Shown piece after piece: positions 12,036 through 53,906 of a DNA stretch of 64,000 bases; the first letter of the stretch is position 1; the number at the start of each line of letters is the position of its first letter. The stretch covers positions 15,768 to 79,767 of the forward strand of contig JBGANR010000020.1 in the NCBI GenBank assembly GCA_044222225.1, in the 5' to 3' direction. This DNA is from Mycobacteriaceae bacterium. Lineage in GTDB: Bacteria > Actinomycetota > Actinomycetes > Mycobacteriales > Mycobacteriaceae. A program made the position numbers and the translations under genes. The notes below the pieces were generated by a model. It ran no database searches, was not told where the DNA came from, and worked only from the letters and a program-made list of their open reading frames with translations.

Positions 12036-13115
12036 CTACAACCAGTGGTTGCGGCGGAAGTTGCGGAACAGCAGGATCACGACGACCACCATGGCGCTGA
12101 GCACGACGTAGTAGCCGTACTCCGTCCCCAGCTCGGGCATGTGCTCGAAGTTCATGCCGTAGATGCCGGCCAGCATCGTCGGGAACGACGCCATCGCCAC
12201 CCACGCGGTGATCTTGCGCATGTCGGTGTTCTGCTGCAGGCCGACCTTGGCGAGGGCGGCCGCCAGCAGGGAGGACAGCACGTCGTCGTAGGTGCCGACG
12301 CGTTCGGCGACGACGGTGTGGTGGTCGAGCACGTCGCGGAAGTAGCGCCGGATCTCCTTCGGCACGATGTCGCTGTGCTGGCTCGTGACGCGCTCGAGCG
12401 GCTTGGCCAGCGGGTCGATGGCCCTCCGCAGCTCGACGACCTCGCGCTTGAGCAGGTAGATCGGATCGACCTCGATCTTGCGCTTGGGCGCGAAGACCGT
12501 CGATTCGACGGCGTCGACGTCGTCCTCGATCGCGTCGGCGACCTCGAGGTAGGTGTCGACGACGTGGTCGGCGATCGCGTGCATGACGGCGCACGGGCCG
12601 AGGGCGAGCAGATCCGGGCTCGCTTCGAGCGTGCGGCGGACGCCCGTCAGCTCCGTGTGCTCGCCGTGGCGGACCGCGATGACGAAGTTCTCGCCGACGA
12701 TGATCATGATCTCGCCGCTGTCGACGACCTCGCTGGCGGCCTCGATCGTCTCGTGCTCGACGTAGGTGACCGTCTTGAGGACGAGGAACAAGGTGTCGTC
12801 GTAGCGCTCCAGCTTCGGCCGCTGGTGGGCGTGCACGGCGTCCTCGACCATGAGCGGATGCAGGCCGTAGGTGACGGCCAGCGACGACATCTGTCGCTCG
12901 TCGGGGGCGTGGAGCCCGATCCAGACGAATCCCTCGCCTCGGGCGCGAACCTCCTGTAGGGCCTGGGTGTGGTCGAAGCGGCCGGGCAGGCGTCTGCCGT
13001 CCACGTAGATCCCGATGTCGACGACGGCGCGGGCGACGGGGACCGGCGGCACCACGGGCCGCGGGCGTCCCGGAGTTCCACCGCCGGTGTTTCGGCGCGC
13101 GGACAGCGGCCGCAT
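12036..13115 (-). CDS. corA: CorA-family Mg2+/Co2+ transporter
   Basis: 359 aa with ATG preceded by GAGGAGG. Two C-terminal TM helices flank the YGMNF signature (AGIYGMNFEHMPEL). Confidence 0.85.
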   Translation of the reverse strand: MRPLSARRNTGGGTPGRPRPVVPPVPVARAVVDIGIYVDGRRLPGRFDHTQALQEVRARGEGFVWIGLHAPDERQMSSLAVTYGLHPLMVEDAVHAHQRPKLERYDDTLFLVLKTVTYVEHETIEAASEVVDSGEIMIIVGENFVIAVRHGEHTELTGVRRTLEASPDLLALGPCAVMHAIADHVVDTYLEVADAIEDDVDAVESTVFAPKRKIEVDPIYLLKREVVELRRAIDPLAKPLERVTSQHSDIVPKEIRRYFRDVLDHHTVVAERVGTYDDVLSSLLAAALAKVGLQQNTDMRKITAWVAMASFPTMLAGIYGMNFEHMPELGTEYGYYVVLSAMVVVVILLFRNFRRNHWL

Positions 13116-13270
13116 GGCCCACCTCCTCGTCGGACTTCACGATCCGGGCCCGTTCGCGTCGTGCCTGCGCCCGTGGTGGCCGGACGCGTCGCCGAGCCGA
13201 CCGCAGGTCATGGTAGACCTCCCGGCGCAGCGGCGACCGCCGAAGCACGGGCGACCGCTGCTGGGCTACG

Positions 13271-13867
13271 GTGGCCGAGATGCCCAGGAGACTGTCGTTG
13301 GTGGTCGCCGTCGTGATCGCGGCGGCACCGGTCGCGGGGTGCGCGACGGACTCCGGCGCGCGCCCGGACGCGGTCGTCGTGGGGTACGCCGGTGATCCGG
13401 TGCGCCGGGCGGCCGCGGCCGTCTATGCCGCGGCGATCCCCGGCGCGCGGCTGGCCGACGCTCCCGCCGAGGACGGGGAGCAGCTCGACAGGTTGCTGCG
13501 CGGCGAGACCGACGTCCTGGCGACCTATAGCGGCCCGCTGCTGGCGCGGCTCGAACCGGCCTCGCCCGCGACGACCGAGGACGAGGTGTACGCCGAGCTG
13601 TTCCGGGCCCTGCCGCCCGGGGTCACGGTCGGGGTGGAGGGCACCGTCGGCGCCGATCCGGGCGCCCCGGAGGCGACGCCGGTCCGTGCGCTGCTGCCCG
13701 TCGTGCGCACCGCGCGGCTGGACAAGGCGCTGTTCCAGCGGCTCAGCGCCGTCTCGTCCGTGCTGACGCGGACGGCCCTCGCCGAGTTGGCGAGGGCCGT
13801 CGAAGCGGGTTCCGACGTGCGGGAGGCGGCCCGCAGCTGGGTCGAGGAGAACGTCAGAACTTCGTGA
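13271..13867 (+). CDS. lipoprotein (solute-binding-protein-like)
   Basis: Signal peptide with lipobox (VIAAAPVAGC). By position (after corA, before the SDR and kgd) it corresponds to the mycobacterial lipoprotein I recall there as LpqZ. Confidence 0.55.
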   Translation: MAEMPRRLSLVVAVVIAAAPVAGCATDSGARPDAVVVGYAGDPVRRAAAAVYAAAIPGARLADAPAEDGEQLDRLLRGETDVLATYSGPLLARLEPASPATTEDEVYAELFRALPPGVTVGVEGTVGADPGAPEATPVRALLPVVRTARLDKALFQRLSAVSSVLTRTALAELARAVEAGSDVREAARSWVEENVRTS

Positions 13868-14705
13868 AGCGTCCGGCGATCCGGGCGTTGACCTGGCGAT
13901 AGAGCGCCGGGAACAGCCGGACGAGGGCGTCGAGCAGCTTGGCGTCGGCACCGATGAGCACGCGGCTGCGGTCGCGTTCGACGCCGCGGATGATCGTCGC
14001 CGCGGCCTGTTCGGCGGTCGTCCGTGCGAGGTGCTTGTCGAAGAAGGCGGCGGCGTCCTTCGCGCTCATGCCTTCGGCGGCCGTCGCGTTGCGCGCGATG
14101 GCGGTCTTGACGCCGCCGGGGTGCACGCACGTCACGCGGACGGGGCGTCGGTCGGCGATCATCTCCTGCTGCAGAGCCTCGGTGAAGCCGCGGACGGCGA
14201 ACTTCGCGGCGTTGTATGCGGCCTGCCCGGGCATCGAGAGGAGGCCGAAGAGCGACGAGACGTTGACGACGTGGCCGTCGCCCGACTCGATGAGGTGGGG
14301 CAGGAACGCCTTGGTGCCGTTGACGACGCCCCAGAAGTCGACGTCCATGATGCGCTCGACGTCCTTGAACTCGGTCTGCTCGACCGGGCCGTTGAACGCG
14401 ATGCCCGCGTTGTTGACGATGATGTGCACGGCGCCGAAGTGGTTCTTCACCGTCTCGGCGTATTCGAGCACCGCCTCGCGCTCGGCGACGTCGAGGCGCT
14501 GGACGTGCACGGCGGTGTCGTCCGTCTCGCCGGCGGTGAGGCCGGCCTGCGTCGCGAGCAGCGCGCGGGTCTGTTCGAGCCCGGCGAGGTCGACGTCCGA
14601 GACGGCGACCCGCGCTCCCTTGGCCGCCAGCTGAAGTGCCAGCTCGCGGCCGATTCCGGACCCCGCGCCCGTGACGACGGCGACTTTTCCCTGGATCTTC
14701 GTCAT
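13854..14705 (-). CDS. short-chain dehydrogenase/reductase (SDR)
   Basis: 283 aa; ATG at 14705 with an AG-rich RBS. TGAGSGIGR cofactor motif, NNAG, and the catalytic YNAAK. The track's 827-aa ORF (13854..16337) is a read-through of this frame. Confidence 0.85.
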   Translation of the reverse strand: MTKIQGKVAVVTGAGSGIGRELALQLAAKGARVAVSDVDLAGLEQTRALLATQAGLTAGETDDTAVHVQRLDVAEREAVLEYAETVKNHFGAVHIIVNNAGIAFNGPVEQTEFKDVERIMDVDFWGVVNGTKAFLPHLIESGDGHVVNVSSLFGLLSMPGQAAYNAAKFAVRGFTEALQQEMIADRRPVRVTCVHPGGVKTAIARNATAAEGMSAKDAAAFFDKHLARTTAEQAAATIIRGVERDRSRVLIGADAKLLDALVRLFPALYRQVNARIAGRFTKF

Positions 14706-43458: not shown

Positions 43459-45771
43459 GTGACGGAAACGGGTGTCATCGATAAGCAGGAGGCGTCGCGG
43501 CCTCGTCGGGGAAGCGGCCTCTCGGGCATGGTGCTCGCCGAGCTCAGGGCCATAGCCGGCGAACTGGGCATCCGCGGTACCTCCGGGATGCGAAAGGGCG
43601 ATCTGATCGCCGCGATCGCCGAGCGGGCGGACGGCGGGCCGGCAGCGCCGCCGCGCACTCGTGCCCCGCGCAAGACCGCAGACGCCGCGGCGCCCGCGGC
43701 CGCCGAGCCGGCGGTCGCCGCTGCTCCGGCAGCCGCCGAGGCCGCGGCCCCTCGCGACCGTGTGACCAGCGACGTCGCGGCTCCCGTGACGTCCGCCCCG
43801 GTCCGGACGCCGGAGGCCGTCAAGGCCGAAGCGCCGGCCGAGAAGGTCGCGACGCCGGACAAGGGTGCCGCGGTGGAGAAGGCTTCGGCTGTCGAGAAGG
43901 CCCCGGCCGTCGAGAAGGCTCCGGCTGCTGAGAAGAGCACGGTGGCCGACAAGGCCCCGAAGGCTGAGAAGTCCCCGGTGGCAGAGAAGGCGCCCGTGGC
44001 GGAGAAGGCCGCGGTCGTCGACAAGACGCCGGCGTCGGTCGAGACGCCGGCCGAGGGCTCTCGCGACAAGGGCGCGGACCGAGGTGACGAGCGCCAGGAC
44101 GAGTCCGGCAAGGACGGTGACCGTCGAGTGGACACGAACAAGGACGACGCGACGAAGAGCACGGACCGCCGCGACAACGCGCGCCGGGACGACGCCGGCG
44201 ACGACCAGCAGGGTGACGATCAGCAGGGCGGCGGACGCCGTCGCCGGCGCGACCGTGGCCAGAACGCGGGCGATGCCAAGGGCGATCGCCCGAACACCCA
44301 GCAGGGCGGCCAGAACGCGGGCCAGGGCAATCAGTCCCAGGCCAGGGACGGCCAGGGCGGTCAGACGCGGGACAATCAGGCCCGCGACAACCAGGCGCGC
44401 GACGGCCAGAACCGCGACAACCAGGCCAGGGACAACCAGAATCCTCGCGGCCAGGGCGGCGAGAATCAGGGCGGCCCGCAGAACCGGCAGCGCAACAGCA
44501 ACAACGATGACGACGACGAGAACGGCAGGGGCCGGCGCGGCCGGCGCTTCCGGGAGCGGCGTCGGGGACGCGACCGCGTCGAGGTCGGCTCGGATCCGCA
44601 GCTCGCCGAAGACGATGTCGTGCAGCCCGTCGCGGGCATCCTCGACGTGCTCGACAACTACGCGTTCGTCCGGACCTCCGGCTACCTCGCCGGCCCCAAC
44701 GACGTCTACGTGTCGATGAACCTCGTGCGTCGCAACGGTCTGCGCCGCGGTGACGCGATCACCGGCGCCGTGCGCATCGGCAAGGAGGGCGAGAACGTCG
44801 GCACCGGCAACAACCGGCAGAAGTTCAACCCGCTGGTGCGGCTGGACACCGTCAACGGCACCGATCCGGAGACGGCCAAGAAGCGTCCGGAGTTCAACAA
44901 GCTGACACCGCTGTACCCGAATCAGCGGCTGCGGCTGGAGACGACCCCGGATCGCATCTCGACTCGCGTCATCGACCTCATCATGCCGATCGGCAAGGGG
45001 CAGCGCGCCCTCATCGTCAGCCCCCCGAAGGCGGGCAAGACGACGATCATGCAGAACATCGCCCACGCGATCACCACCAACAATCCGGAATGCCACCTCA
45101 TGGTGGTGCTCGTCGACGAGCGTCCGGAGGAGGTGACCGACATGCAGCGGTCGGTGCGCGGCGAGGTCATCGCCTCCACCTTCGACCGTCCGCCGTCAGA
45201 TCACACGTCGGTCGCCGAGCTCGCCATCGAGCGGGCCAAGCGGCTCGTCGAGAACGGCAAGGACGTCGTCGTCCTGCTCGACTCGATCACGCGGCTGGGG
45301 CGTGCGTACAACAACTCCTCGCCGGCGTCGGGCCGCATCCTGTCCGGCGGCGTCGATTCGACGGCCCTCTACCCGCCGAAGCGGTTCCTCGGTGCGGCGC
45401 GCAACATCGAGAACGGCGGCTCGCTGACCATCATCGCGACGACGATGGTCGAGACCGGCTCGACAGGCGACACGGTGATCTTCGAGGAGTTCAAGGGCAC
45501 CGGCAACGCCGAGCTCAAGCTCGATCGCAAGATCGCCGAGCGGCGCGTCTTCCCGGCCGTCGACGTCAACCCGTCGAGCACCCGTAAGGACGAGCTGCTG
45601 CTCTCGCCGGAGGAGTTCGGCGTCGTCTACAAGCTGCGCCGGGTGCTCTCGGGCCTCGACAGCCAGCAGGCGATCGACCTGCTGATCAGTCAGCTGAAGA
45701 AGACCAAGACGAACTACGAGTTCCTGCTGCAGGTGCAGCAGAACACCCCGGGTTCGATGTCCGACAACTGA
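43459..45771 (+). CDS. rho: transcription termination factor Rho with long actinobacterial-type N-terminal insertion
   Basis: 770 aa. Has an N-terminal domain and a roughly 250-aa Arg/Asp/Gln/Asn/Gly-rich insertion. Also has an OB-fold RNA-binding region (YAFVRTSGY) and RecA-like ATPase motifs (Walker A GKTT; Walker [10 protein letters not shown]). GTG start with an AGGAAAGGAAA RBS. Confidence 0.9.
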
Positions 45772-45847: not shown

Positions 45848-47518
45848 CTACTCCGGCAGGTAGTCGTCGACGGCCCGGGCGATGTCGGCGAGCCGGCCGC
45901 AGTTCGCCGTGCTGGACTGCTGCAGGCCGATCCACAGCGTGCCGTTGGACGCCGACTTGTAGGCGAGGACGCAGAAACCGGCGGCCGTCGAGTTGGTGTT
46001 CGTCGCGTTGAACTGGCGCCACTTGTCGTTGACGACGCTGGCGGTGCCGCTGTCCCAGTCGGTCGAGTTCTGGAAGGTGGCGAACTTGACGTCGACGTTC
46101 CCGTTCTTGCTGTCGACGCCCTTGCAGGCCCACTTGACGCCGCTGGTGTTGCGCTGTCCGGGGTCGTCGAGGAGCGCCGAGATGCCGAGATTCGTGATGA
46201 CGTCGCTCGGGATCTTGCAGGGATCGATGTAGTTCTCCCGCAGGACGGCGACCTTGTCGATCGACGGCTTCGTCGAGGTGGACGTCGTGGGAGCAGTGGG
46301 CCCCGGGTCGTCCGAGCCGCTGGACATGATGATGACGACGGCGGCGATGACGGCCGCGATGGTGACGACGACCGCGCAGGCGATGAGGACGTTCTTGTTT
46401 CCGGACTTCGCCGGGGGCGTCGGCGACGCCGGCCGCACCGGTTGCGGCTGCTGCCACGACTGCTGCGGGGGGCCGTTCCACGACTGCTGCGGGCCGGACT
46501 GTCCGGTGTATCCCTGATGCGGACCGGCCTGCGTGGGAGGTGACTGGTAATTCGGATGCGGGACCGACGGCTGCGAGCCCGGAGTGATCGGCATCACCGG
46601 CATGGACGGCATCGACGGTCGGCTGATCGGTCCGCGGCCGATGGTGGTGCTGTCCGGAACCGCGCTGGCCGGCAGCGCGGCGTGCGTGCCGGCGGCGGCG
46701 GAGAGGGCCTGGGCGAACGCGCGGCAACTGCCGAAACGCTGCGTCGCGTGCTTGGCCATTCCGCGGGCGATGACGCCGTCGACGGCGGGCGGCAGACCCG
46801 GCCGGTTGTGCGACGGGACGGGCGGAGGGGCCGTCAGATGCTTGCCGATGACGGTGGCGCTGGACGCCGAGCCGAACGGCTTCTGTCCGGTGAGCAGGTG
46901 GACCGCGGTGCACGCGAGGCTGTACTGGTCGGTGCGGCCGTCGAGATGATCGCCGGAGAGCTGCTCGGGCGAGCAGTAGTCGACGGTGCCGACGGTGGTG
47001 CCGATCGCCGTCAGCTCGCTGGGCTCGTCGGCGCGGGCGATGCCGAAGTCGCCGAGCATGATCCGGGGTGTCGATCCGCTGGAATCGATGAGGATGTTGC
47101 CGGGTTTGACGTCGCGGTGCAGCAGCCCCTTGCTGTGCGCGTAGTCGAGGGCGTCCGCGACGGCGTTGATGATGGCGATGACCTGCCCGAGCGGCAGACC
47201 GGCCGGATTCTGCAGGAGCATCGCCGACGCGTCGGGCCCGGGCACGAGCTTCATGCTCATCCAGAGGCGGCCCTCGTCCTCGCCGCGGTCGTAGACGGGC
47301 ACGATGTTCGGGTGGTCGAGCGCACCCGCGAGGTCGGCTTCACGTTCGAAACGGCCGCGATAGGTGTTGTCGTCCGAGAAGCGGTCGGCGAGTACCTTGA
47401 GGGCGTCCGTCCGGGGTAGGCGGGGGTGCCGGGCGGCGTAGACGGCGCCCATGCCGCCGGTGCCGAGGACGCGTTCGATCGTGTATCCGCCGATGACGGC
47501 GCCGGCCGGTTCGGTCAC
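45848..47518 (-). CDS. Ser/Thr protein kinase (PknF/I/J-like) with TM helix and C-terminal four-Cys extracellular domain
   Basis: 556 aa; GTG with a GAGGAGG RBS. Gly-loop LGTGGMGAVY, catalytic HRDVKPGNILI, DFG, and an activation segment TVDYCSPEQ. Pro/Gln-rich linker, a TM helix (VLIACAVVVTIAAVIAAVVIIM), and a roughly 170-aa ectodomain with 4 Cys that ends in DDYLPE. Confidence 0.85.
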   Translation of the reverse strand: MTEPAGAVIGGYTIERVLGTGGMGAVYAARHPRLPRTDALKVLADRFSDDNTYRGRFEREADLAGALDHPNIVPVYDRGEDEGRLWMSMKLVPGPDASAMLLQNPAGLPLGQVIAIINAVADALDYAHSKGLLHRDVKPGNILIDSSGSTPRIMLGDFGIARADEPSELTAIGTTVGTVDYCSPEQLSGDHLDGRTDQYSLACTAVHLLTGQKPFGSASSATVIGKHLTAPPPVPSHNRPGLPPAVDGVIARGMAKHATQRFGSCRAFAQALSAAAGTHAALPASAVPDSTTIGRGPISRPSMPSMPVMPITPGSQPSVPHPNYQSPPTQAGPHQGYTGQSGPQQSWNGPPQQSWQQPQPVRPASPTPPAKSGNKNVLIACAVVVTIAAVIAAVVIIMSSGSDDPGPTAPTTSTSTKPSIDKVAVLRENYIDPCKIPSDVITNLGISALLDDPGQRNTSGVKWACKGVDSKNGNVDVKFATFQNSTDWDSGTASVVNDKWRQFNATNTNSTAAGFCVLAYKSASNGTLWIGLQQSSTANCGRLADIARAVDDYLPE

Positions 47519-47650
47519 CTGAGCCTCCTCGTGTGCTCGACGTCCGCGCTGGCGGACGGGATCTCGGTCCGCGCGCGCGGACGCGAATGGTCGACGTTCA
47601 TGAGCACAGTAGCACTATCTAGTGATCCTTAAACGTCAGGTGATGATCTG

Positions 47651-49603
47651 CTAGTGAGGGAGCACGGTGTCGACCTCGTAGGCGATCGAACTCAGGTCGT
47701 CGCACACGCCTCCGGTGGTGCCTTCGCGCGGCTCGATCGAGATCTCCAGCAGCCCGTCCTCGCCCGGGCCGTCGTAGCCGACGTAGCAGCGGGTCTCCGT
47801 CTTGTAGAGGCGCCAGCCCTGACGGCCCGGCAGCGGTGTCCGGTCCGGCGAGGACCGGCGCTTCGCCGCCTCCGCCGCGCCGTCCGTGCCGCTCCGATGG
47901 ACGACGAAGGACACGGTGTGGTTGCGCAGCTGCGCCACGCACCCCACCTCGGCGGTCGTGAGCGGACCGACGCCGGCCCTGGCCAGCGTGCTGTCCGGGA
48001 TGCGGCACGGGTCCATGACGCCGTCCACGACGATCGTGCCGTTGATCAACGTCCCGCTGGGCTTCGTCCCGGTGGGTGACGTGGGCGTCCCGGTCCCGCT
48101 GGTCGCTCCGGACGTCGTGCTGACGGACGACGTGCCGGGCGGCGCGGCATCGTTCGTCTTGCGCTTCTCGAGGTACACGAACACCCCGGCCACCACGAGT
48201 GCGACGACGAGCACGCCGATGCCGGCGACGAGGCCGCGCCGACGCGTGCTCCGCCGCCCCGGGGCCGGCCGTGCGGCCGGAGTGTGCGGGGCCGGACCGG
48301 CATGGTCACCGGAACCGGACCGGGTCGGCGGAGCCGGCGTCCGGGGTGCCGCGGCGCCGGAGGCATGACGACCGGTGGGCGCCGGCGCCGGGGTCTGTCG
48401 GCGCTGGGTGGGGAACTGCTGCGGCGTCGGATGCCGCGGGGGCGCGGGCGGAGTCATGGCGCCGGCGGTCCGGTGCCGCGGCGGGTGCGCGCCCGACGGC
48501 GTCTTCGTCGTCCGCTGATCCGGCCCGAGCATCGTGGGCTGCGCCTGCGAGGCCGGCGGTGTGCGCGGGCGTCGCGCATCGGCTGCGGGGTTGCCGGGCG
48601 GCGTTCCCGGACCGGGCGCCGGCAGGCGACGTGAGACCGGGGTGCCGGGTCGCGGGAGACCGGGGTGCGGCGACGTCGGGGCGGTCGGCTCGTCCGGCGG
48701 CGACGTCTCGGCCTCGAGGCGTGACGTCGTCCGGTCCGGCAGGCTCGTGCCCGGCACGAACTTGACGGTCGACGGGTCGTCGAGCGCCTCGGCCAGCGCG
48801 GTCGCGAACGCCGCGCACGTCCGGTAGCGGGCCTCGGGCGCCTTGGCCATGGCGCGGCCGATGACGACGTCCGCCGCGGCCGGGGTGTCGCGCCGGAAAC
48901 GGGAGAGCGGTGGCGGCACCGACACCATGTGCTGGCCGATGACCCCCGCCGTGCTCGACGAGTCGAACGGCGGCGCGCCGGTGAGCAGAGTGAAGGCCGT
49001 GCAGGCGAGGCTGTACTGGTCCGACCGGCCGTCGATGTCGCCCCCCGCGAGCTGTTCGGGGGAGCAGTAGTCGACCGTGCCGAGCACCATGCCGGTCGCC
49101 GTCAGTCGCGAGCGGCCGAGCGGTCGCGCGATGCCGAAATCCGAGAGCAGGACGAGCTTGCGCGTTTCGTCGATGAGGATGTTCGCCGGTTTGACGTCCC
49201 GGTGCAGGAGCCCGCGGGCGTGGGCGAAGTCGAGCGCGTCGGCGACGGCGGAGACGATCGAGACCGCGACGGCCGTCGGCAGGCCGTGGGGAGAATCGAC
49301 GAGCATCGCGTCGGCGTCCGTGCCGCGGATGAGTTTCATGCTCATCCAGAGCCGACCGCGGTCGGCGCCGCGGTCGAAGACCTGCAGGATGTGCGGGTGG
49401 TCGAGGTCGGCGGCGATGTCCGCCTCCCGCTCGAACCGCCGCTGGAACTCCGGATCATCCGAGTACTCCGCTGCGAGCACTTTGAGTGCGTCGACCCGCG
49501 GCACGCGGGGATGCCGCGCGGCGTAGACGGTGCCCATCCCCCCGGATCCCAGCACCGATTCGATGCGGTATCCGGAGATGAGGCTCCCGATCGGCTCCGG
49601 CAT
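47651..49603 (-). CDS. Ser/Thr protein kinase (PknF/I/J-like) with TM helix and C-terminal four-Cys extracellular domain
   Basis: Start at the ATG at 49603 (MPEPIGSLISGY) with a GGAGGAA RBS; the 152 codons upstream in the track are a read-through. Same kinase motifs as kinase 1. Long Pro/Arg/Thr-rich linker, a TM helix (LVAGIGVLVVALVVAGVFVYL), and an ectodomain ending in VDTVLPH. Confidence 0.8.
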   Translation of the reverse strand: MPEPIGSLISGYRIESVLGSGGMGTVYAARHPRVPRVDALKVLAAEYSDDPEFQRRFEREADIAADLDHPHILQVFDRGADRGRLWMSMKLIRGTDADAMLVDSPHGLPTAVAVSIVSAVADALDFAHARGLLHRDVKPANILIDETRKLVLLSDFGIARPLGRSRLTATGMVLGTVDYCSPEQLAGGDIDGRSDQYSLACTAFTLLTGAPPFDSSSTAGVIGQHMVSVPPPLSRFRRDTPAAADVVIGRAMAKAPEARYRTCAAFATALAEALDDPSTVKFVPGTSLPDRTTSRLEAETSPPDEPTAPTSPHPGLPRPGTPVSRRLPAPGPGTPPGNPAADARRPRTPPASQAQPTMLGPDQRTTKTPSGAHPPRHRTAGAMTPPAPPRHPTPQQFPTQRRQTPAPAPTGRHASGAAAPRTPAPPTRSGSGDHAGPAPHTPAARPAPGRRSTRRRGLVAGIGVLVVALVVAGVFVYLEKRKTNDAAPPGTSSVSTTSGATSGTGTPTSPTGTKPSGTLINGTIVVDGVMDPCRIPDSTLARAGVGPLTTAEVGCVAQLRNHTVSFVVHRSGTDGAAEAAKRRSSPDRTPLPGRQGWRLYKTETRCYVGYDGPGEDGLLEISIEPREGTTGGVCDDLSSIAYEVDTVLPH

Positions 49604-49749
49604 CGATTCCTCCATCACGAACGGCGTGGCTGGATAGACGCTAGCGCGAGCTCCCGCTGCCGCGCCGCCGCCGTCCAGGGCGGTCGCTGCGCGGCGCCGA
49701 CCACCGTGTGTCGTTTCGCGTATCGGTTCGCCGCCGCCGAACCGGGCTC

Positions 49750-50370
49750 TCATGGCAACGCGGGCGCGAGCGCACGCGCGAGGTCGGGGAGCCGGTCGCA
49801 GATCGGTGTCACTCCGGGCTTCGCGGGAATGAGATAGGTCGAGTCGACCGATTGCAGGACCACGAGGCCGTCGTCGTCGGGCGTCTTGTACATGGCCACG
49901 CACTCGTGCGAGTTCGGGTCGGCGGACAGCCGCCAGGCGGGCATGCCCGGAATCGTCTCCGACGCCCCGGCGTAGCGGGTCCAGTACGACGGATTGCCGT
50001 CGACGGCCCAGGCGCCGATGAAGATCGAGTCGTTCGACGCGGCGTCCGGCGTCCAGCATGAGTTCCCGCCCACCTGTGCGGGCCCGAAGCCGGCGCCGCT
50101 GAGCAGGTCGGCGGGCACCTTGGCGCAGTCGACGACGCCCGCCGTGACGAACGACGGCCGCTGCGCGACCGAGGAGGACGGCGCGGTGGAGGCCGGCGTC
50201 GTCGCGGCCGTCCCGCCGCCGGGCGGCGTGGTGGTCGTCGCGATTCCCGGCGTGCTCGACGACGACGACGCGGCGGCGCCGTCGTTCCCGGTGCCCGTGC
50301 AGGCGGCGGAAAGGGTGGCGACGGTGAGCAGACCGGCAGCGGCGGCGGCGCGGGTGCGGAAGACGGACAT
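49750..50370 (-). CDS. lipoprotein that is a free-standing paralogue of the kinase four-Cys ectodomain
   Basis: 206 aa; ATG with a GAGGAG RBS. Signal peptide plus lipobox (LLTVATLSAAC), a Ser/Thr/Pro-rich spacer, then a domain sharing the motifs DC.K.P ... C ... GMPAWRL ... C.A.Y ... ICD ... LA.ALP with the kinase ectodomains. Confidence 0.75.
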   Translation of the reverse strand: MSVFRTRAAAAAGLLTVATLSAACTGTGNDGAAASSSSSTPGIATTTTPPGGGTAATTPASTAPSSSVAQRPSFVTAGVVDCAKVPADLLSGAGFGPAQVGGNSCWTPDAASNDSIFIGAWAVDGNPSYWTRYAGASETIPGMPAWRLSADPNSHECVAMYKTPDDDGLVVLQSVDSTYLIPAKPGVTPICDRLPDLARALAPALP

Positions 50371-50424
50371 GGCGGGCTCCTCGGGTTCTGGTGGTCGTGT
50401 GGGCGCTTCGTCGGGCGGGTGAGG

Positions 50425-51057
50425 TCAGGGCAGGACGGTGTCGACGGCGTGTGCGATGTCGGCGCGGCGATCGCAGAGCGAGACGAGCTCGCCGGGGAGG
50501 GGATCGGTCTGGACGCCGAACTCGATGTAGTAGAAGGCGCTTCCGTCCGGGGCGTCGTACCCGGCGAAGCAGCTCAGCTCGTCTCCGTAGAGGCGCCAGC
50601 CGGCGAGCCCGGGCACGATGTCGGCGCCGGTCGCCGCGAATGCGGCGCGGGCTTCCGGTCCCTTGCCCGGCGCGACGATGTTGATGTGCCCGTAGTTCGG
50701 GCGCACGCCGGCCTGATTGAGTGCCGGATCGCTGATCTCGCAGGTGTCGTCACCGCCGCTCTGCTGATGCAGCCCGATGCGGGCCAGCGGCTCTTCGAGG
50801 AGCTCGCAGTTGGGGCCCGTGCCGTCGCGGAGCACGAGGTTGGCGCCGGCGTGTCGAGCGGGGGCGCTCGTCGGGGTCGTCGTCCCGGATGTCGTGGACG
50901 TCTGCGGGGCGCCGCCCGGCGCGCTGGACGTGGGCGTGCCGGAGCTGCTGGCGGCCGTATCGGATCCACCGGCGTCGCACGCCGAGAGCGACAGTGCCGA
51001 GAGCGCGGCCGCAATCGTCAGTCCGGCGGCGAGACGGCGGGATGCGGTGATGGCCAT
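50425..51057 (-). CDS. lipoprotein, second free-standing paralogue of the kinase four-Cys ectodomain
   Basis: Start at the ATG at 51057 (MAITASRRLAAGLTIAAALSALSLSAC, a lipobox) with a GGAGG RBS. Domain motifs NCELL ... TCEIS ... GLAGWRLYGD ... CFAGYDAPDGSAFYYIEF ... LCDRRADIAHAVDTVLP align with kinases 2 and 3 and with lipoprotein A. Confidence 0.75.
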   Translation of the reverse strand: MAITASRRLAAGLTIAAALSALSLSACDAGGSDTAASSSGTPTSSAPGGAPQTSTTSGTTTPTSAPARHAGANLVLRDGTGPNCELLEEPLARIGLHQQSGGDDTCEISDPALNQAGVRPNYGHINIVAPGKGPEARAAFAATGADIVPGLAGWRLYGDELSCFAGYDAPDGSAFYYIEFGVQTDPLPGELVSLCDRRADIAHAVDTVLP

Positions 51058-51118
51058 GGCGGACCTCCAGATCGAACGTGTGATGTACCAAGGAAATCGT
51101 CTGCCGACTGCCTCGTGA

Positions 51119-51141
51119 GGGCATCGGTAGTCGACTACTCG
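51119..51141. promoter_or_regulatory. conserved 23-nt motif GGGCATCGGTAGTCGACTACTCG (perfect palindrome GTAGTCGACTAC at 51127-51138) upstream of lipoprotein B
   Basis: Matches 22 of 23 nt of a second copy at 53380-53402. Lies 62-84 nt upstream of the lipoprotein B start codon. Confidence 0.5.
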
Positions 51142-51259
51142 AACGACGCGCGCCGGATCGGACGGGCCAAACGTGAGGCCCCACAACGGACCGCAGACGC
51201 ACATCGCGCCGGCCGCGGACTGCGGCCGGCGCGATGCGTCGGATCGGGTCGGAGCCCGC

Positions 51260-53311
51260 TCAGTGGGTCGGCTGGGGCGTCTGGGTCTGGTTCGCCGTCG
51301 TCTGGTGAGGCGTCGTCTGAGTGGTCGTGGGTTCCCAGGTCGTCGTCGGCGGCGTCGTGTGGGTCGTGGTCGGCTTCCACGTCGTCGTCGGGCAGTCGTG
51401 GGTGCAGCCGTAGGTGGTCGTCGGCGGCGGCGTCCACGTCGGCTCCGGCGTGTACGTCGGCTGTGGCGCCGCGGTGGTGGTGGCAGCGGCCGCGACGGCC
51501 GGCGGCAGTACGCCGCTCACGGCACGGGCGACGTTCGTCAGGGCGTCGCAGATGCTCTCGGAGCTGGAGGCGTAGTGCATGGAGAGTTCCAGCAGACCGG
51601 TGTCCTTCGCTCCGGCGTAGCCGACGAAGCAGTCCGTCGCATCCTTGAAGTGCCGCCAGCCGGGCACGCCGGACAGCGGTTCACCGCCGGTGAAGCGTGC
51701 CCACGCCTCCTCGTCCTTCCCGGCCGGATGAACGTCGAACGAGACGGCGTGGCCGCCGTCGACGGTCGTCGCGATGCACCCGGTGTCGGTCGTCTTGAAC
51801 TCCTGCAGCCCGGCCGCGGTGAGCACCGACTGCGGGATCTTGCAGGCGTTCATGACGCCTTCGTCGACGATCGTCTCGCCGTCGGGCGCCGGTGCCGGGA
51901 GCGGACGCGTCGACGTCGACTCGGTGGCCGACGACGGGGTCGTCTCGGCCGACGTCGTGGCTGTCGTAGCCGTGTCGGTGCCTTCGTTGTTCTTCGACAC
52001 GAGGATGTAGCCGCCGGCCCCGAACGCGACGAGGGCCGCGACCGCGAGCGACAGCAACAACAGCGGCCCCCGGCGCGACCGGGGCTCGCCCGGACGCGGC
52101 CCTCCGCCGCCCGGCGGTGGCGGCGGGAACGGCGGCGGAGCGGCCGTCGGCGGCATCGTCTGCCGTCGGGTGGCACCGTCGGCCGGGCCTGAACGCCCGA
52201 CGAGAGCCGGGCCGCGTATCTCGGTGGCCGAATCGTCGAATCCGCCGGGCACATCGGTCGTGCGCCGCCGCATCTGCTGGTGCATCGGCGGCCGGGTGGG
52301 CGTCCGGGGCGGCATCGCGGCCGTCGGATCGTCGAGGTACTCGGTCGCGGGGTCGAGCACCGGCAGGGGCTGCGACGGCGGCGGCGCGTCGAACGCGGCG
52401 CGCAGGGCGTCGGCGAAATCGCTGCAGCGCGCGAACCGGTCGTCCGGCTCCTTGGCCATCGCGCGCGCCAGCACGGCGTCGACGGCCGCCGGGGTGTCCG
52501 GACGGAACTGCGAGATCCGCGGCGGCTCGGACACCATGTGCTGGCCGATGACGCCGGCGTTGCTCGGCGCGTCGAACGGCGCCCGGCCGGTGAACAGCGC
52601 GAACGCCGTGCACGTGAGGCTGTACTGGTCGGCGCGGCCGTCGAGCGGCGAGCCGGTGAGCTGCTCCGGCGAGCAGTAGTCGACGGTGCCGATCGTCATT
52701 CCCGTGGCCGTCAGCCGCGTCCGCCCCATCGGGCGGGCGATGCCGAAGTCCGCCAGCAGCACCTGACGTCCCTGGTCGGCGATGAGGATGTTCGCGGGCT
52801 TGACGTCGCGGTGCAGCAGATTACGCCGATGCGCGTAGTCGAGGGCGCGGGCGACGGCGTCGATGATCGTCAGCGCGGAGGTGACGTCGAGGCCCTGGGG
52901 CGAGCGGTGGAGCAGCGCCTCGGCGTCCGTGCCGCGGACGAGCTTCATGCTCATCCACAGTCGGCCGTGGTCCTCGCCGCGGTCGAAGACCTGCAGGATG
53001 TGCGGGTGGTCGAGGTCGGCGGCGATGTCGGCCTCGCGTTCGAACCGGGCGCGGAACTCGGGATCGGCCGAGTACTGCTCGGCGAGCACCTTGAGCGCGT
53101 CGATGCGCGGCACCCGAGGATGGCGCGCGGCGTAGACGGTGCCCATGCCGCCCGCCCCGAGCGTCGAGAGCACGCGGTATCCGGAGATCGTCATGGCCGC
53201 CGGCCCGAGCGCGGTGCCGGGCCCCGTGGTGAGGTCGGCTCCGTAGGTCTCGTCCGGCGACGGACCGCGCCCCTGTCCGGGGCCCGCGGGGGGACTGCTC
53301 GGCATGATCAC
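51260..53311 (-). CDS. Ser/Thr protein kinase (PknF/I/J-like) with TM helix, four-Cys extracellular domain and Thr/Pro/Trp-rich C-terminal tail
   Basis: 683 aa (GTG at 53311; an ATG at 53305 has a GGAG RBS). Kinase motifs as in kinases 1 and 2. TM helix (LLLLSLAVAALVAFGAGGYILV). Ectodomain ending in ARAVSGVLP. Followed by an approximately 80-aa tail rich in PTTTW repeats with a CTHDC motif. Confidence 0.85.
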   Translation of the reverse strand: MIMPSSPPAGPGQGRGPSPDETYGADLTTGPGTALGPAAMTISGYRVLSTLGAGGMGTVYAARHPRVPRIDALKVLAEQYSADPEFRARFEREADIAADLDHPHILQVFDRGEDHGRLWMSMKLVRGTDAEALLHRSPQGLDVTSALTIIDAVARALDYAHRRNLLHRDVKPANILIADQGRQVLLADFGIARPMGRTRLTATGMTIGTVDYCSPEQLTGSPLDGRADQYSLTCTAFALFTGRAPFDAPSNAGVIGQHMVSEPPRISQFRPDTPAAVDAVLARAMAKEPDDRFARCSDFADALRAAFDAPPPSQPLPVLDPATEYLDDPTAAMPPRTPTRPPMHQQMRRRTTDVPGGFDDSATEIRGPALVGRSGPADGATRRQTMPPTAAPPPFPPPPPGGGGPRPGEPRSRRGPLLLLSLAVAALVAFGAGGYILVSKNNEGTDTATTATTSAETTPSSATESTSTRPLPAPAPDGETIVDEGVMNACKIPQSVLTAAGLQEFKTTDTGCIATTVDGGHAVSFDVHPAGKDEEAWARFTGGEPLSGVPGWRHFKDATDCFVGYAGAKDTGLLELSMHYASSSESICDALTNVARAVSGVLPPAVAAAATTTAAPQPTYTPEPTWTPPPTTTYGCTHDCPTTTWKPTTTHTTPPTTTWEPTTTQTTPHQTTANQTQTPQPTH

Positions 53312-53379
53312 TCCATCAGGTCGCTGGGACGGACGCGGGCCGCGCCTGTCGATCCAATCGTCAGACGTTCGCCCCGGGT

Positions 53380-53402
53380 GGGCATCAGTAGTCGACTACT
53401 CG
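53380..53402. promoter_or_regulatory. conserved 23-nt motif GGGCATCAGTAGTCGACTACTCG (perfect 14-bp palindrome AGTAGTCGACTACT at 53387-53400) upstream of kinase 3, within the kinase-3 / rpmE divergent region
   Basis: Second copy of the motif found at 51119-51141. Lies 69-91 nt upstream of the kinase-3 start. Confidence 0.5.
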
Positions 53403-53678
53403 TCTCGATCATCCGCTCGAGACGCGCCGGCGGTGCAACGGGAATGCGACCGGCCCGAGCGGTGTTCAACCGGTGGCCGACGATTGGAGACGTCGGTGCC
53501 CGTCTGGCATGATCGACGGGTCAATCGCTCCAACAGCACATCTTCAGTCCGGTTCCGGTTCACACCGTGCCGCCACGTCCGTGAGCAGGTTCTCGATTGC
53601 GCCGACCATACGGTGCGACGGGGGCCGATGCGCAACGGAATCGGCGGGCGGTGACCCGGAGCCATGAAAGGGACACCA

Positions 53679-53906
53679 ATGAAGCAGGGAATCCATCCCG
53701 AGTATGTCGAGACCACGGTGCTCTGTGGCTGCGGCAACACGTTCACCACGCACAGCACCAAGACCAGCGGCCGGATCACGGTCGAGGTCTGCTCGCAGTG
53801 CCATCCGTTCTACACCGGCAAGCAGAAGATCCTCGACACCGGCGGCCGCGTGGCCCGGTTCGAGGCCCGCTACGGCAAGCGCAAGCGCGTCGGCGCCGAA
53901 GACTAG
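53679..53906 (+). CDS. rpmE: 50S ribosomal protein L31 (zinc-ribbon type)
   Basis: 75 aa from the ATG at 53679 (MKQGIHPEY). Cys pairs CGCG ... [10 protein letters not shown] are typical of L31 type A. Confidence 0.85.

Follow-up and report, generated by a model that had tools for sequence, protein, structure and literature searches.

Three PknF-like kinases and two lipoproteins between rho and rpmE share a domain that appears to be a divergent form of DUF3558

Introduction

What might three receptor kinases and two lipoproteins that carry the same extracytoplasmic domain be doing side by side between rho and rpmE? The question arose from a 64-kb stretch of DNA (64,000 nucleotides, hereafter the window) from a Gordonia/Williamsia-like member of the Mycobacteriaceae, in which an earlier note had described such a cluster as an insertion. 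The locus connects two puzzles: what the ectodomains of actinobacterial receptor kinases sense, and what DUF3558 proteins do. DUF3558 (Pfam PF12079) comprises actinobacterial secreted proteins and lipoproteins. The PknH-like extracellular domain, to which the domain in the cluster had been likened, occurs in PknH (sensor structure PDB 4ESQ) and in LpqQ, LprH, LppH and LpqA, which are lipoproteins.

Results

The ORF list of the window confirmed the reported layout, in which five co-oriented minus-strand genes are separated by gaps of 54-202 nt. K1 (45848-47518, 556 aa) is convergent with rho (43459-45771) across a gap of 76 nt. Next come K2 (47651-49603, 650 aa), LA (49750-50370, 206 aa), LB (50425-51057, 210 aa) and K3 (51260-53311, 683 aa as given), with intergenic gaps of 132, 146, 54 and 202 nt, and then rpmE (53664-53906). 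The products of rho, rpmE and prfA, the other flanking gene, pass their NCBIfam cut-offs. A start at ATG 53305, giving a predicted protein of 681 aa, is more likely for K3 because GGAG lies 7 nt upstream of it; GGAGG lies 6 nt ahead of the LB ATG. All five frames are intact with high GC3, and the GC content of the cluster equals that of its flanks.

A repeat search identified two 47-nt elements (family D8, minus strand) that are 81% identical, one upstream of K3 (53356-53402) and one upstream of LB (51095-51141). The K3 copy contains the perfect palindrome GTAGTCGACTAC, of which the 64-kb window has two occurrences and no more. Only K3 and LB share the upstream element, so co-regulation of all five genes does not have to be assumed. 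A scan for sigma-70 promoters and terminators returned no more than chance, and inspection by eye recognised no SigM-type promoter upstream of K3 or LB.

K1, K2 and K3 score 135-136 bits with Pkinase (PF00069), for which the cut-off is 31.7, and have E-values near 1e-39 (1.7e-39 for K1). The catalytic Lys, HRD and DFG are intact and the activation-loop Thr is conserved in all three, as are the signatures noted earlier: WMSMKL, HRDVKPxNILI and an activation segment with Cys (GTVDYCSPE). Hydropathy, with one cluster of hydrophobic 19-mers per kinase, predicts a single transmembrane (TM) segment in each protein between the kinase and the C-terminal domain. In K1 the kinase domain (about aa 12-280) is followed by a Pro/Gln-rich linker and a TM segment at about aa 373-403; K2 has a long Pro/Arg-rich linker and a TM segment at about aa 455-480, and that of K3 lies at about aa 414-439. 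The best PDB match of each kinase is 7NAA, the kinase domain of M. tuberculosis PknF (cPknF, PMC8339232), with E-values of 1e-82 to 1e-85 (K3, 1.5e-85). Weaker matches follow to PknI (1e-61), PknE (1e-57) and PknB (1e-47). On this basis K1-K3 are predicted to belong to the PknF/PknI/PknJ clade of Hanks-type Ser/Thr kinases, as single-pass receptors.

K2 is identical to a protein (P0001) in a set of 1.84 billion representative proteins. Scanning GTDB genomes with K3 retrieved 80 loci in species-representative genomes, all through kinase-domain matches of at most 50% identity. The P+1-loop Cys (DYCSPEQ) was present in 0 of the 79 kinase ORFs in these loci, and 0 of the 80 loci encoded the ectodomain or a DUF3558-like ORF.

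PADLOC models for PD-T4-6 and mad6 match all three kinases with E-values down to 1e-96, and the genes between rho and rpmE differ in each relative (see below). Both observations would fit anti-phage defence kinases of the PD-T4-6/Stk2 type in a variable, defence-island-like spot. The PADLOC matches, however, are limited to the generic Hanks kinase domain, and PknB and PknF match the same regions equally well. The receptor topology, with its TM helix and extracytoplasmic Cys-rich domain, also speaks against defence, as do the lack of PADLOC matches to LA and LB, a GC content equal to that of the flanks, and the absence of other defence genes, integrases or marks of mobile elements among the features seen. 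We consider a defence role extremely unlikely.

LA and LB have canonical signal peptides and lipoboxes (LSAAC in LA, where a Ser/Thr/Pro/Ala linker follows; LSAC in LB, with SRRLAAG in the signal peptide and a linker), and neither matches a Pfam or NCBIfam family. The mature part of each carries the domain that also ends the kinases. All on the minus strand, the copies lie at 45851-46252 in K1 (aa 423-556), 47654-48037 in K2 (aa 523-650), 49753-50154 in LA (aa 73-206), 50428-50841 in LB (aa 73-210) and 51497-51874 in K3 (aa 480-605). Each spans about 130 aa with four Cys. In K3 the domain precedes a Thr/Pro-rich tail of about 80 aa (51260-51496, minus strand; DNA repeat family D6), which the earlier note does not mention. 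The tail has two further Cys; its sequence includes TTTW-x-PTTT repeats and a YGCTHDC motif.

The five domains are homologous well beyond chance. By BLAST, the K2 and K3 ectodomains (K2e and K3e) are 42% identical (E 1e-25), and LA and LB match the K2 and K3 domains with E-values of 1e-6 to 1e-11 (LA to K3e, 1e-8; LA to K2e, 1e-6; LB to K2e, 1.7e-11). The K1 ectodomain (K1e) is the most divergent copy and is marginal in pairwise comparison (E 1e-3). Profile alignment of the K1 group with the other four domains with hhalign gave a probability of 95.8% and an E-value of 6.6e-9. In LA and LB the first of the four Cys is displaced by a single residue; the consensus motif string proposed for the domain fits K2 and K3 best, and K1 is a clear outlier. 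The four Cys, a WR pair and a C-terminal LP are kept although the copies share only 20-30% identity. The Cys may form disulfides. K2 and K3 are closest to one another, by kinase domain (66% identical) as well as by ectodomain, and a neighbour-joining tree groups LB with K2e and K3e (67% bootstrap). No sixth copy was found in the 64-kb window. Together with the match to 7NAA, the BLAST and hhalign results uphold the description of a local paralogue set with three copies on PknF-type kinases and two in lipoproteins.

We examined the relationship of this domain to known families. Pfam and NCBIfam scans of the five domains gave zero matches even at E<=10, a word-indexed search for homologues of the K3 ectodomain came back empty, and PDB sequence searches with two domain profiles (A1 and A6) found no meaningful match and no PknH sequence. 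A profile built from window sequences only retrieved an Amycolatopsis DUF3558 lipoprotein (P0012) with an E-value of 2.2e-4 among 1.84e9 proteins. P0012 and a second protein, P0017, pass the Pfam DUF3558 gathering score of 34.1 bits; no window domain reaches this threshold or matches PF12079 at E<=10. In hhalign, window profile A1 and DUF3558 profile A3 align over 118 columns with a probability of 94.9% and an E-value of 4.4e-8. The four Cys and the C-terminal LP are in register, as they are in alignments A2 and A5. These results argue that the window domain is a very divergent branch of DUF3558. The proposed kinship with the PknH-like extracellular domain did not hold: that family gave no Pfam match at E<=10, and the sequence link leads to DUF3558 instead. 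The subfamily is extremely rare, with about 10 clusters at 50% identity among 1.84 billion representative proteins.

On a rival reading, the domain would recognise proteins in connection with type VII (ESX) secretion. The lipoproteins would be immunity- or chaperone-like binders, and the kinases would sense ESX/WXG100-type effectors, secreted or incoming, instead of a small molecule of the envelope. The parts of the window that were examined hold no ESX, WXG100 or PE/PPE gene, the window domains are very far from canonical DUF3558 with no direct Pfam match, and a SigM-type promoter was not recognised upstream. We regard this reading as rather unlikely.

K3e and K1e were modelled confidently by AF2, and their models have the same order of elements. 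Structure comparison identified an alpha-beta-alpha sandwich with an antiparallel sheet, and the predicted fold class is Mog1/PsbP-like. A Foldseek search of the PDB gave nothing significant. In the structural ranking, the PknH sensor 4ESQ fell below LpqN, Mog1, PsbP and Tsi3. Membership in the PknH-like family PF14032 was rejected: there was no match at E<=10, and 4ESQ is not the nearest structural neighbour. LpqN of M. tuberculosis (PDB 6E5D) is a lipid-binding lipoprotein with a Mog1/PsbP-like fold; it shares 7-10% sequence identity with the window domain, and the likeness is one of fold, with no sign of common ancestry beyond it.

The earlier note had held that nothing lies between rho and rpmE and that the cluster is an insertion. 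Emptiness at this site is no rule in Gordoniaceae. In the five relatives compared it contains unrelated cargo or next to nothing; the junction varies in content and is a hot spot of lineage-specific genes in this family. The five genes are likewise lineage-specific cargo, not conserved across the order. They are not the product of a single recent insertion, because a metagenomic relative (L091) more distant than Gordonia (Rho core 84% identical to that of the window, against 88-90% for Gordonia) carries only a K1 orthologue (P0024, 53% identical overall) between rho and rpmE. From this lone orthologue, K1 seems older, and K2-LA-LB-K3 seem to have been added or expanded. Recent horizontal transfer is unlikely given the GC content shared with the flanks, the lack of a tRNA or integrase at the junction, and the K1 orthologue that occupies this position in a distant relative.

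Other relatives carry parts of the set. One locus (L081) encodes an LA orthologue (88% identical) with a tandem paralogue (P0004, 57%), and another (L082) encodes a pseudokinase bearing the same domain. A metagenome contig scan with alignment A4 patterns found no relatives. Two distant kinase relatives on unrelated contigs (P0007 and P0008) are each followed by GDSL/SGNH hydrolases, and one also by an Acyl_transf_3 gene. This GDSL linkage is limited to the distant relatives and is absent from the window.

The variation in copy number (K1 only in L091, an LA-LA' tandem in L081), the L082 pseudokinase, the grouping of LB with K2e/K3e and the upstream element that LB shares with K3 could point to a redundant, partly decaying paralogue array that has no collective function, its lipoproteins being kinase genes minus the cytoplasmic part. 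Decay sits poorly with five intact frames of high GC3, catalytic motifs intact in three kinases, a signal peptide and lipobox of canonical form in each lipoprotein, an LA orthologue kept at 88% elsewhere, and residues retained across copies of 20-30% identity. We judge such an array very unlikely.

Discussion

We lean towards a model in which the kinases are receptors for an envelope ligand and are activated by dimerisation, and the lipoproteins serve as accessory binding modules; we give it slightly better than even chances. On all five proteins the domain would be exposed outside the cytoplasmic membrane, where it may bind a ligand derived from the envelope, with a lipid, glycolipid or acylated glycan as the likeliest kind. 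Binding would change the oligomeric state of the kinase, the cytoplasmic kinase domains would dimerise, with trans-autophosphorylation of the threonines conserved in the activation loop (LTATG), and the activated kinases would phosphorylate cytoplasmic targets. LA and LB might tune the signal by binding the same ligand class or by pairing with kinase ectodomains. The ligand, activation by dimerisation, disulfide formation and any kinase-lipoprotein interplay are inferred.

Points in favour of this model include the GDSL/SGNH hydrolases after P0007 and P0008, and the dimerisation and autophosphorylation model proposed for PknF (PMC8339232). Other points count against it. No substrate gene, for instance one for an FHA protein or for an ABC transporter of the Rv1747 kind, adjoins the kinases, whose neighbours are rho, rpmE and paralogues. 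In addition, the Mog1/PsbP fold is also a protein-binding module, as in Tsi3, Eag-type chaperones and Mog1.

In evolution, a K1-type kinase would have come first to the variable rho-rpmE junction, K2 and K3 may have arisen when an entire kinase gene was duplicated, and LB probably derives from a K2/K3-type ectodomain.

A bolder proposal is that the ectodomains pair the kinases directly with the free lipoproteins, in a combinatorial system of receptors with co-receptors (or decoys) that would be the bacterial equivalent of the receptor-kinase/receptor-like-protein pairs of plants. Because of the link between DUF3558 and ESX-4, such a system might detect ESX/T7SS-secreted proteins. We find this distinctly unlikely; if true, it would give the DUF3558 superfamily its first function. 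The sequence relationships suggest that PknF-type kinases can have a DUF3558-type fold as their sensor. Three kinase-linked and two free copies make a compact natural set for binding, pairing and phosphoproteomic work, and the rarity of the subfamily limits its value.

We compared the locus to known systems and conclude that it is an interesting local form of an established design and does not amount to a new type of system. Like members of the PknF/PknI/PknJ clade, the window kinases consist of a kinase, a linker, a single TM helix and an extracellular domain, and they keep the activation-loop TxT, HRD and DFG. Their ectodomain shows, as far as tested, no sequence relationship to those of PknF, PknI or PknJ. 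They differ from PknF in having LWMSMKL in place of LWIDMDF and DYCSPEQ in place of SYAAPEQ in the P+1 loop, and in lacking the adjoining Rv1747-like FHA-ABC transporter of PknF (Rv1746). The window domain is similar in size to DUF3558 (about 130-170 aa), and LA and LB share its stand-alone lipoprotein architecture, which runs to about 180 aa, whereas the three copies in K1-K3 are kinase fusions. The parts of the window that were examined also lack the ESX context of the M. abscessus DUF3558 members (PMC13491425). Finally, the domain is shorter than the PknH-like extracellular domain PF14032 (about 130 against about 190 aa), and, in a further departure from the PknH system, its kinase and lipoprotein copies are clustered at one locus.

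A kinase and lipoprotein cluster between rho and rpmE

Five intact ORFs, all on the minus strand, occupy positions 45848-53311 between rho and rpmE, in agreement with the coordinates of the earlier note. They code for three PknF-like receptor Ser/Thr kinases, K1 (556 aa), K2 (650 aa), and K3 (683 aa), and two lipoproteins, LA (206 aa) and LB (210 aa). The gaps inside the cluster measure 132, 146, 54, and 202 nt. The flanking genes rho (43459-45771, plus strand), rpmE (53664-53906, plus strand), and prfA scored above their NCBIfam cut-offs. K1 and rho are convergent across a 76-nt gap, and K3 and rpmE are divergent across 352 nt. Elsewhere in the window, the core gene order is of the M. tuberculosis Rv1223-Rv1310 type (htrA, mrp, mgtE, corA, kgd, and argS-lysA-hom-thrC-thrB-rho, then rpmE-prfA-hemK-sua5-rfe-atp). 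The GC content of the cluster (0.70-0.77) is like that of its flanks, and GC3 is at least 0.90 in K1 and K3. Rho itself is 770 aa long in the window and shorter in Gordonia and Williamsia relatives (620-711 aa); a long insertion of low complexity, rich in Asp, Asn, Arg, Gly, and Gln, precedes the RNA-binding domain in its N-terminal half (43459-44600).

Pfam identified a Pkinase domain in each kinase (E about 1e-39). K1-K3 look catalytically competent because the G-loop, catalytic Lys, HRDVKPxN, DFG, and LTA(T/I)G activation-loop motifs are all present. The alternative that the five genes represent a decaying paralogue array is disfavored by the intact motifs and by conservation. PADLOC matches raise the further alternative that K1-K3 are defense kinases, but these matches are confined to the generic kinase domain. 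The kinase domains are followed by a Pro-rich linker and a single hydrophobic TM segment. ATG 53305, with GGAG 7 nt upstream, is a more probable start for K3 than GTG 53311. K1 and K2 lack any counterpart of the roughly 40 residues with which K3 begins ahead of its kinase domain. After its ectodomain, K3 carries a Thr/Pro-rich tail of 80 aa (aa 606-683, 51260-51496) with TTTW-x-PTTT repeats and a CxxxC motif (YGCTHDC), and this tail might serve as a spacer that is O-glycosylated or spans the wall.

A rare four-Cys domain related to DUF3558

The C-terminal regions of all five proteins align over about 130 residues, in which a WR motif and four Cys are conserved, along with an aromatic position after the third of these Cys and a terminal (V/A/Y)LP. 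We compared the domain copies (K1e, K2e, K3e, LAe, and LBe) by pairwise BLAST at a fixed database size of 1e6. K2e and K3e are 42% identical (E 1e-25), and the lipoproteins matched kinase ectodomains (LB to K2e, E 1.7e-11; LA to K3e, E 1.4e-8) and each other (E about 5e-5). K1e matched K3e at only E 1e-3. Despite this weak pairwise score, the profile comparison indicates that K1e belongs to the family, since hhalign aligned K1e and its orthologue with the other four copies over 115 columns (probability 95.8%, E 6.6e-9). A family HMM found exactly five copies in the window. The earlier note's proposal of a local paralogue expansion of one domain across kinases and lipoproteins is borne out.

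Neither the ectodomains nor the lipoproteins matched anything in Pfam or NCBIfam, even at E≤10. The earlier note had likened the domain to the PknH-like extracellular domain, and this assignment falls with the lack of any PknH_C match in Pfam at that threshold. We then searched 1.84 billion representative proteins exhaustively with a HMMER profile built from the five window copies only, which returned 14 matches at E≤1e-3. Four of these, at E 1e-30 or better, were the window's own K2, LB, and K1 and an LA paralogue (P0004). Genuine relatives among the rest comprised a K1 orthologue (P0006/P0024), the kinases P0005, P0007, and P0008, and an Amycolatopsis lipoprotein (P0012, E 2.2e-4). Five matches were clearly repeat-protein noise.

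P0012 and its paralogue P0017 pass the Pfam gathering score for DUF3558 (PF12079, full model), and more Amycolatopsis DUF3558 proteins came up when the search was repeated with a larger alignment. As an independent test of this link, we compared an alignment of the window copies alone with one of six Amycolatopsis DUF3558 proteins. hhalign matched the two alignments over 118 columns (probability 94.9%, E 4.4e-8), and both the C-terminal LP and each of the four Cys were in register. These results place the domain in the DUF3558 superfamily, as a branch that is both very rare and very divergent and lies beyond the reach of the Pfam model.

AlphaFold2 models of K3e (11-sequence alignment; pLDDT 91.6, pTM 0.86) and K1e (pLDDT 83.0, pTM 0.80) have the same order of elements, alpha-beta-beta-alpha-beta-beta-beta-alpha. 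The fold is LpqN-like. Tsi3/Eag-type proteins are also fold neighbors, and DcrB, Mtc28, Apa, TiME, an Rv0999 orthologue, PA0094, and Dip2269 were found at lower Z.

Lipoproteins and candidate regulatory elements

LA and LB each have a signal peptide and a lipobox (LSAAC and LSAC, respectively), followed by a Ser/Thr/Pro/Ala linker of about 50 aa that leads into the four-Cys domain. A GGAGG located 6 nt ahead of the LB start codon lends support to that start. The LB signal peptide (50977-51057) contains a twin-arginine-like SRRLAAG, so that LB could be a lipoprotein exported by the Tat pathway; no RR pair occurs in LA.

A 47-nt element occurs twice, upstream of LB (51095-51141) and of K3 (53356-53402). 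The copies are 81% identical, lie 45-90 nt upstream of the start codons, and enclose a perfect 12-bp palindrome, GTAGTCGACTAC. The 64-kb window contains exactly two copies of this palindrome, and the 93 fetched loci contain none. The element is a candidate operator for the co-regulation of K3 and LB. The gap between the K2 stop and the K1 start holds, in the stretch 47540-47600, a GC-rich 16-bp palindrome, GTCCGCGCGCGCGGAC, that could form a stem-loop or attenuator. It lacks a following T-run and for this reason went unflagged in a terminator scan.

A layered history at the rho-rpmE junction

The Rho protein of the window is closest to those of Gordonia, Williamsia, and Rhodococcus, with 88-90% core identity to G. 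sinesedis and G. insulae. We compared the junctions of five relatives (loci L086, L087, L088, L092, and L093). G. insulae and Gordonia sp. CPCC 205515 carry three genes of unrelated type on the minus strand (for a HemS-like protein, a flavodoxin/FAD reductase, and a GltB-like protein of about 1870 aa), Williamsia limnetica carries a single DUF3105 gene, and G. sinesedis carries five small plus-strand genes without Pfam matches. By eye, the first two of these five appear WXG100-like. The junction of the metagenomic relative L093 is essentially empty. Because the cargo differs and none of these five junctions contains the four-Cys domain, the comparison indicates that the junction is a variable spot and that the five genes are lineage-specific rather than ancestral to the order.

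In three metagenome contigs (L089, L090, and L091), a K1 orthologue is convergent with rho (53% overall identity to K1, 64% in the kinase domain). In L091, the rpmE N-terminus (MKQGIHPDY...) lies directly upstream of this gene in divergent orientation, which indicates the arrangement rho-[K1 only]-rpmE. The L091 Rho core is 84% identical to that of the window, more distant than Gordonia. The reading of the five genes as lineage-specific cargo holds, but a single recent insertion does not fit K1 standing alone in a more distant organism. Another contig, L081, has yet another composition, with an LA orthologue (88%) followed by the LA paralogue P0004 (57% identity). Among the window copies, K2 and K3 are mutual nearest relatives in both kinase domain (66%) and ectodomain (42%), which points to whole-gene duplication. 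The domain tree placed LB with K2e/K3e (67% bootstrap) and LA with P0004 (100%), and deeper nodes were not resolved. We conclude that the history of this insertion has more layers than first proposed.

Proposed function of the shared domain

Distant ectodomain-bearing kinases have GDSL/SGNH hydrolase genes downstream on the same strand: three follow P0007 (contig L082, 4672-9289), together with an Acyl_transf_3 gene, and P0008 is followed by genes of the GDSL/SGNH hydrolase type in L084 (3236-4123). These neighbors hint at a tie between the domain and envelope acylation. The P0007 contig also codes for a 541-aa protein (12762-14387, minus strand) with the same four-Cys ectodomain and a degenerate kinase domain (HGSVSPGH for HRDxKPxN, GFG for DFG), probably a pseudokinase member of the family.

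The best-supported reading of the cluster is that of three envelope-facing receptor kinases with two accessory lipoproteins, a function that we infer. Ligand-dependent oligomerization would activate the kinases, and autophosphorylation of the activation loop would follow, as proposed for PknF and PknB (PMC8339232). LA and LB, which have the same binding module, would serve as accessory factors. The LpqN-like fold and the GDSL/acyltransferase neighbors of distant relatives suggest, only indirectly, that the ligand may be a lipid, glycolipid, or acyl-glycan. A rival explanation is that the domain recognizes proteins in an ESX secretion-linked role, in line with the enrichment of DUF3558 in the M. 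abscessus SigM/ESX-4 regulon (PMC13491425) and with the Tsi3/Eag-type fold neighbors.

Comparison with PknF

The earlier label of PknF/I/J-like kinases was correct, since the closest solved homologue is 7NAA, M. tuberculosis cPknF (PMC8339232; E 1e-82 to 1e-85), and PknI is second (1e-57 to 1e-61), followed by PknE and PknB. We describe a new, Pfam-invisible, and very rare DUF3558-like subfamily on PknF-type kinases, with an inferred role as a sensor.

The unusual signatures reported for these kinases are real. Their P+1-loop Cys (codons at 46975-46977 in K1, 49066-49068 in K2, and 52675-52677 in K3) was found in 0 of 79 kinase ORFs from 80 loci of GTDB species-representative genomes retrieved with K3, where the position is occupied by Met (44), Leu (9), Val (7), Ala (7), Ile (7), or Ser (5). 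The other ectodomain-bearing kinases P0005, P0007, and P0008 share the Cys, and the K1 orthologue P0024 has Ala. This residue could be a redox-sensitive site. Where the window kinases have LWMSMKL and GTVDYCSPE, PknF has LWIDMDF and GTVSYAAPE.
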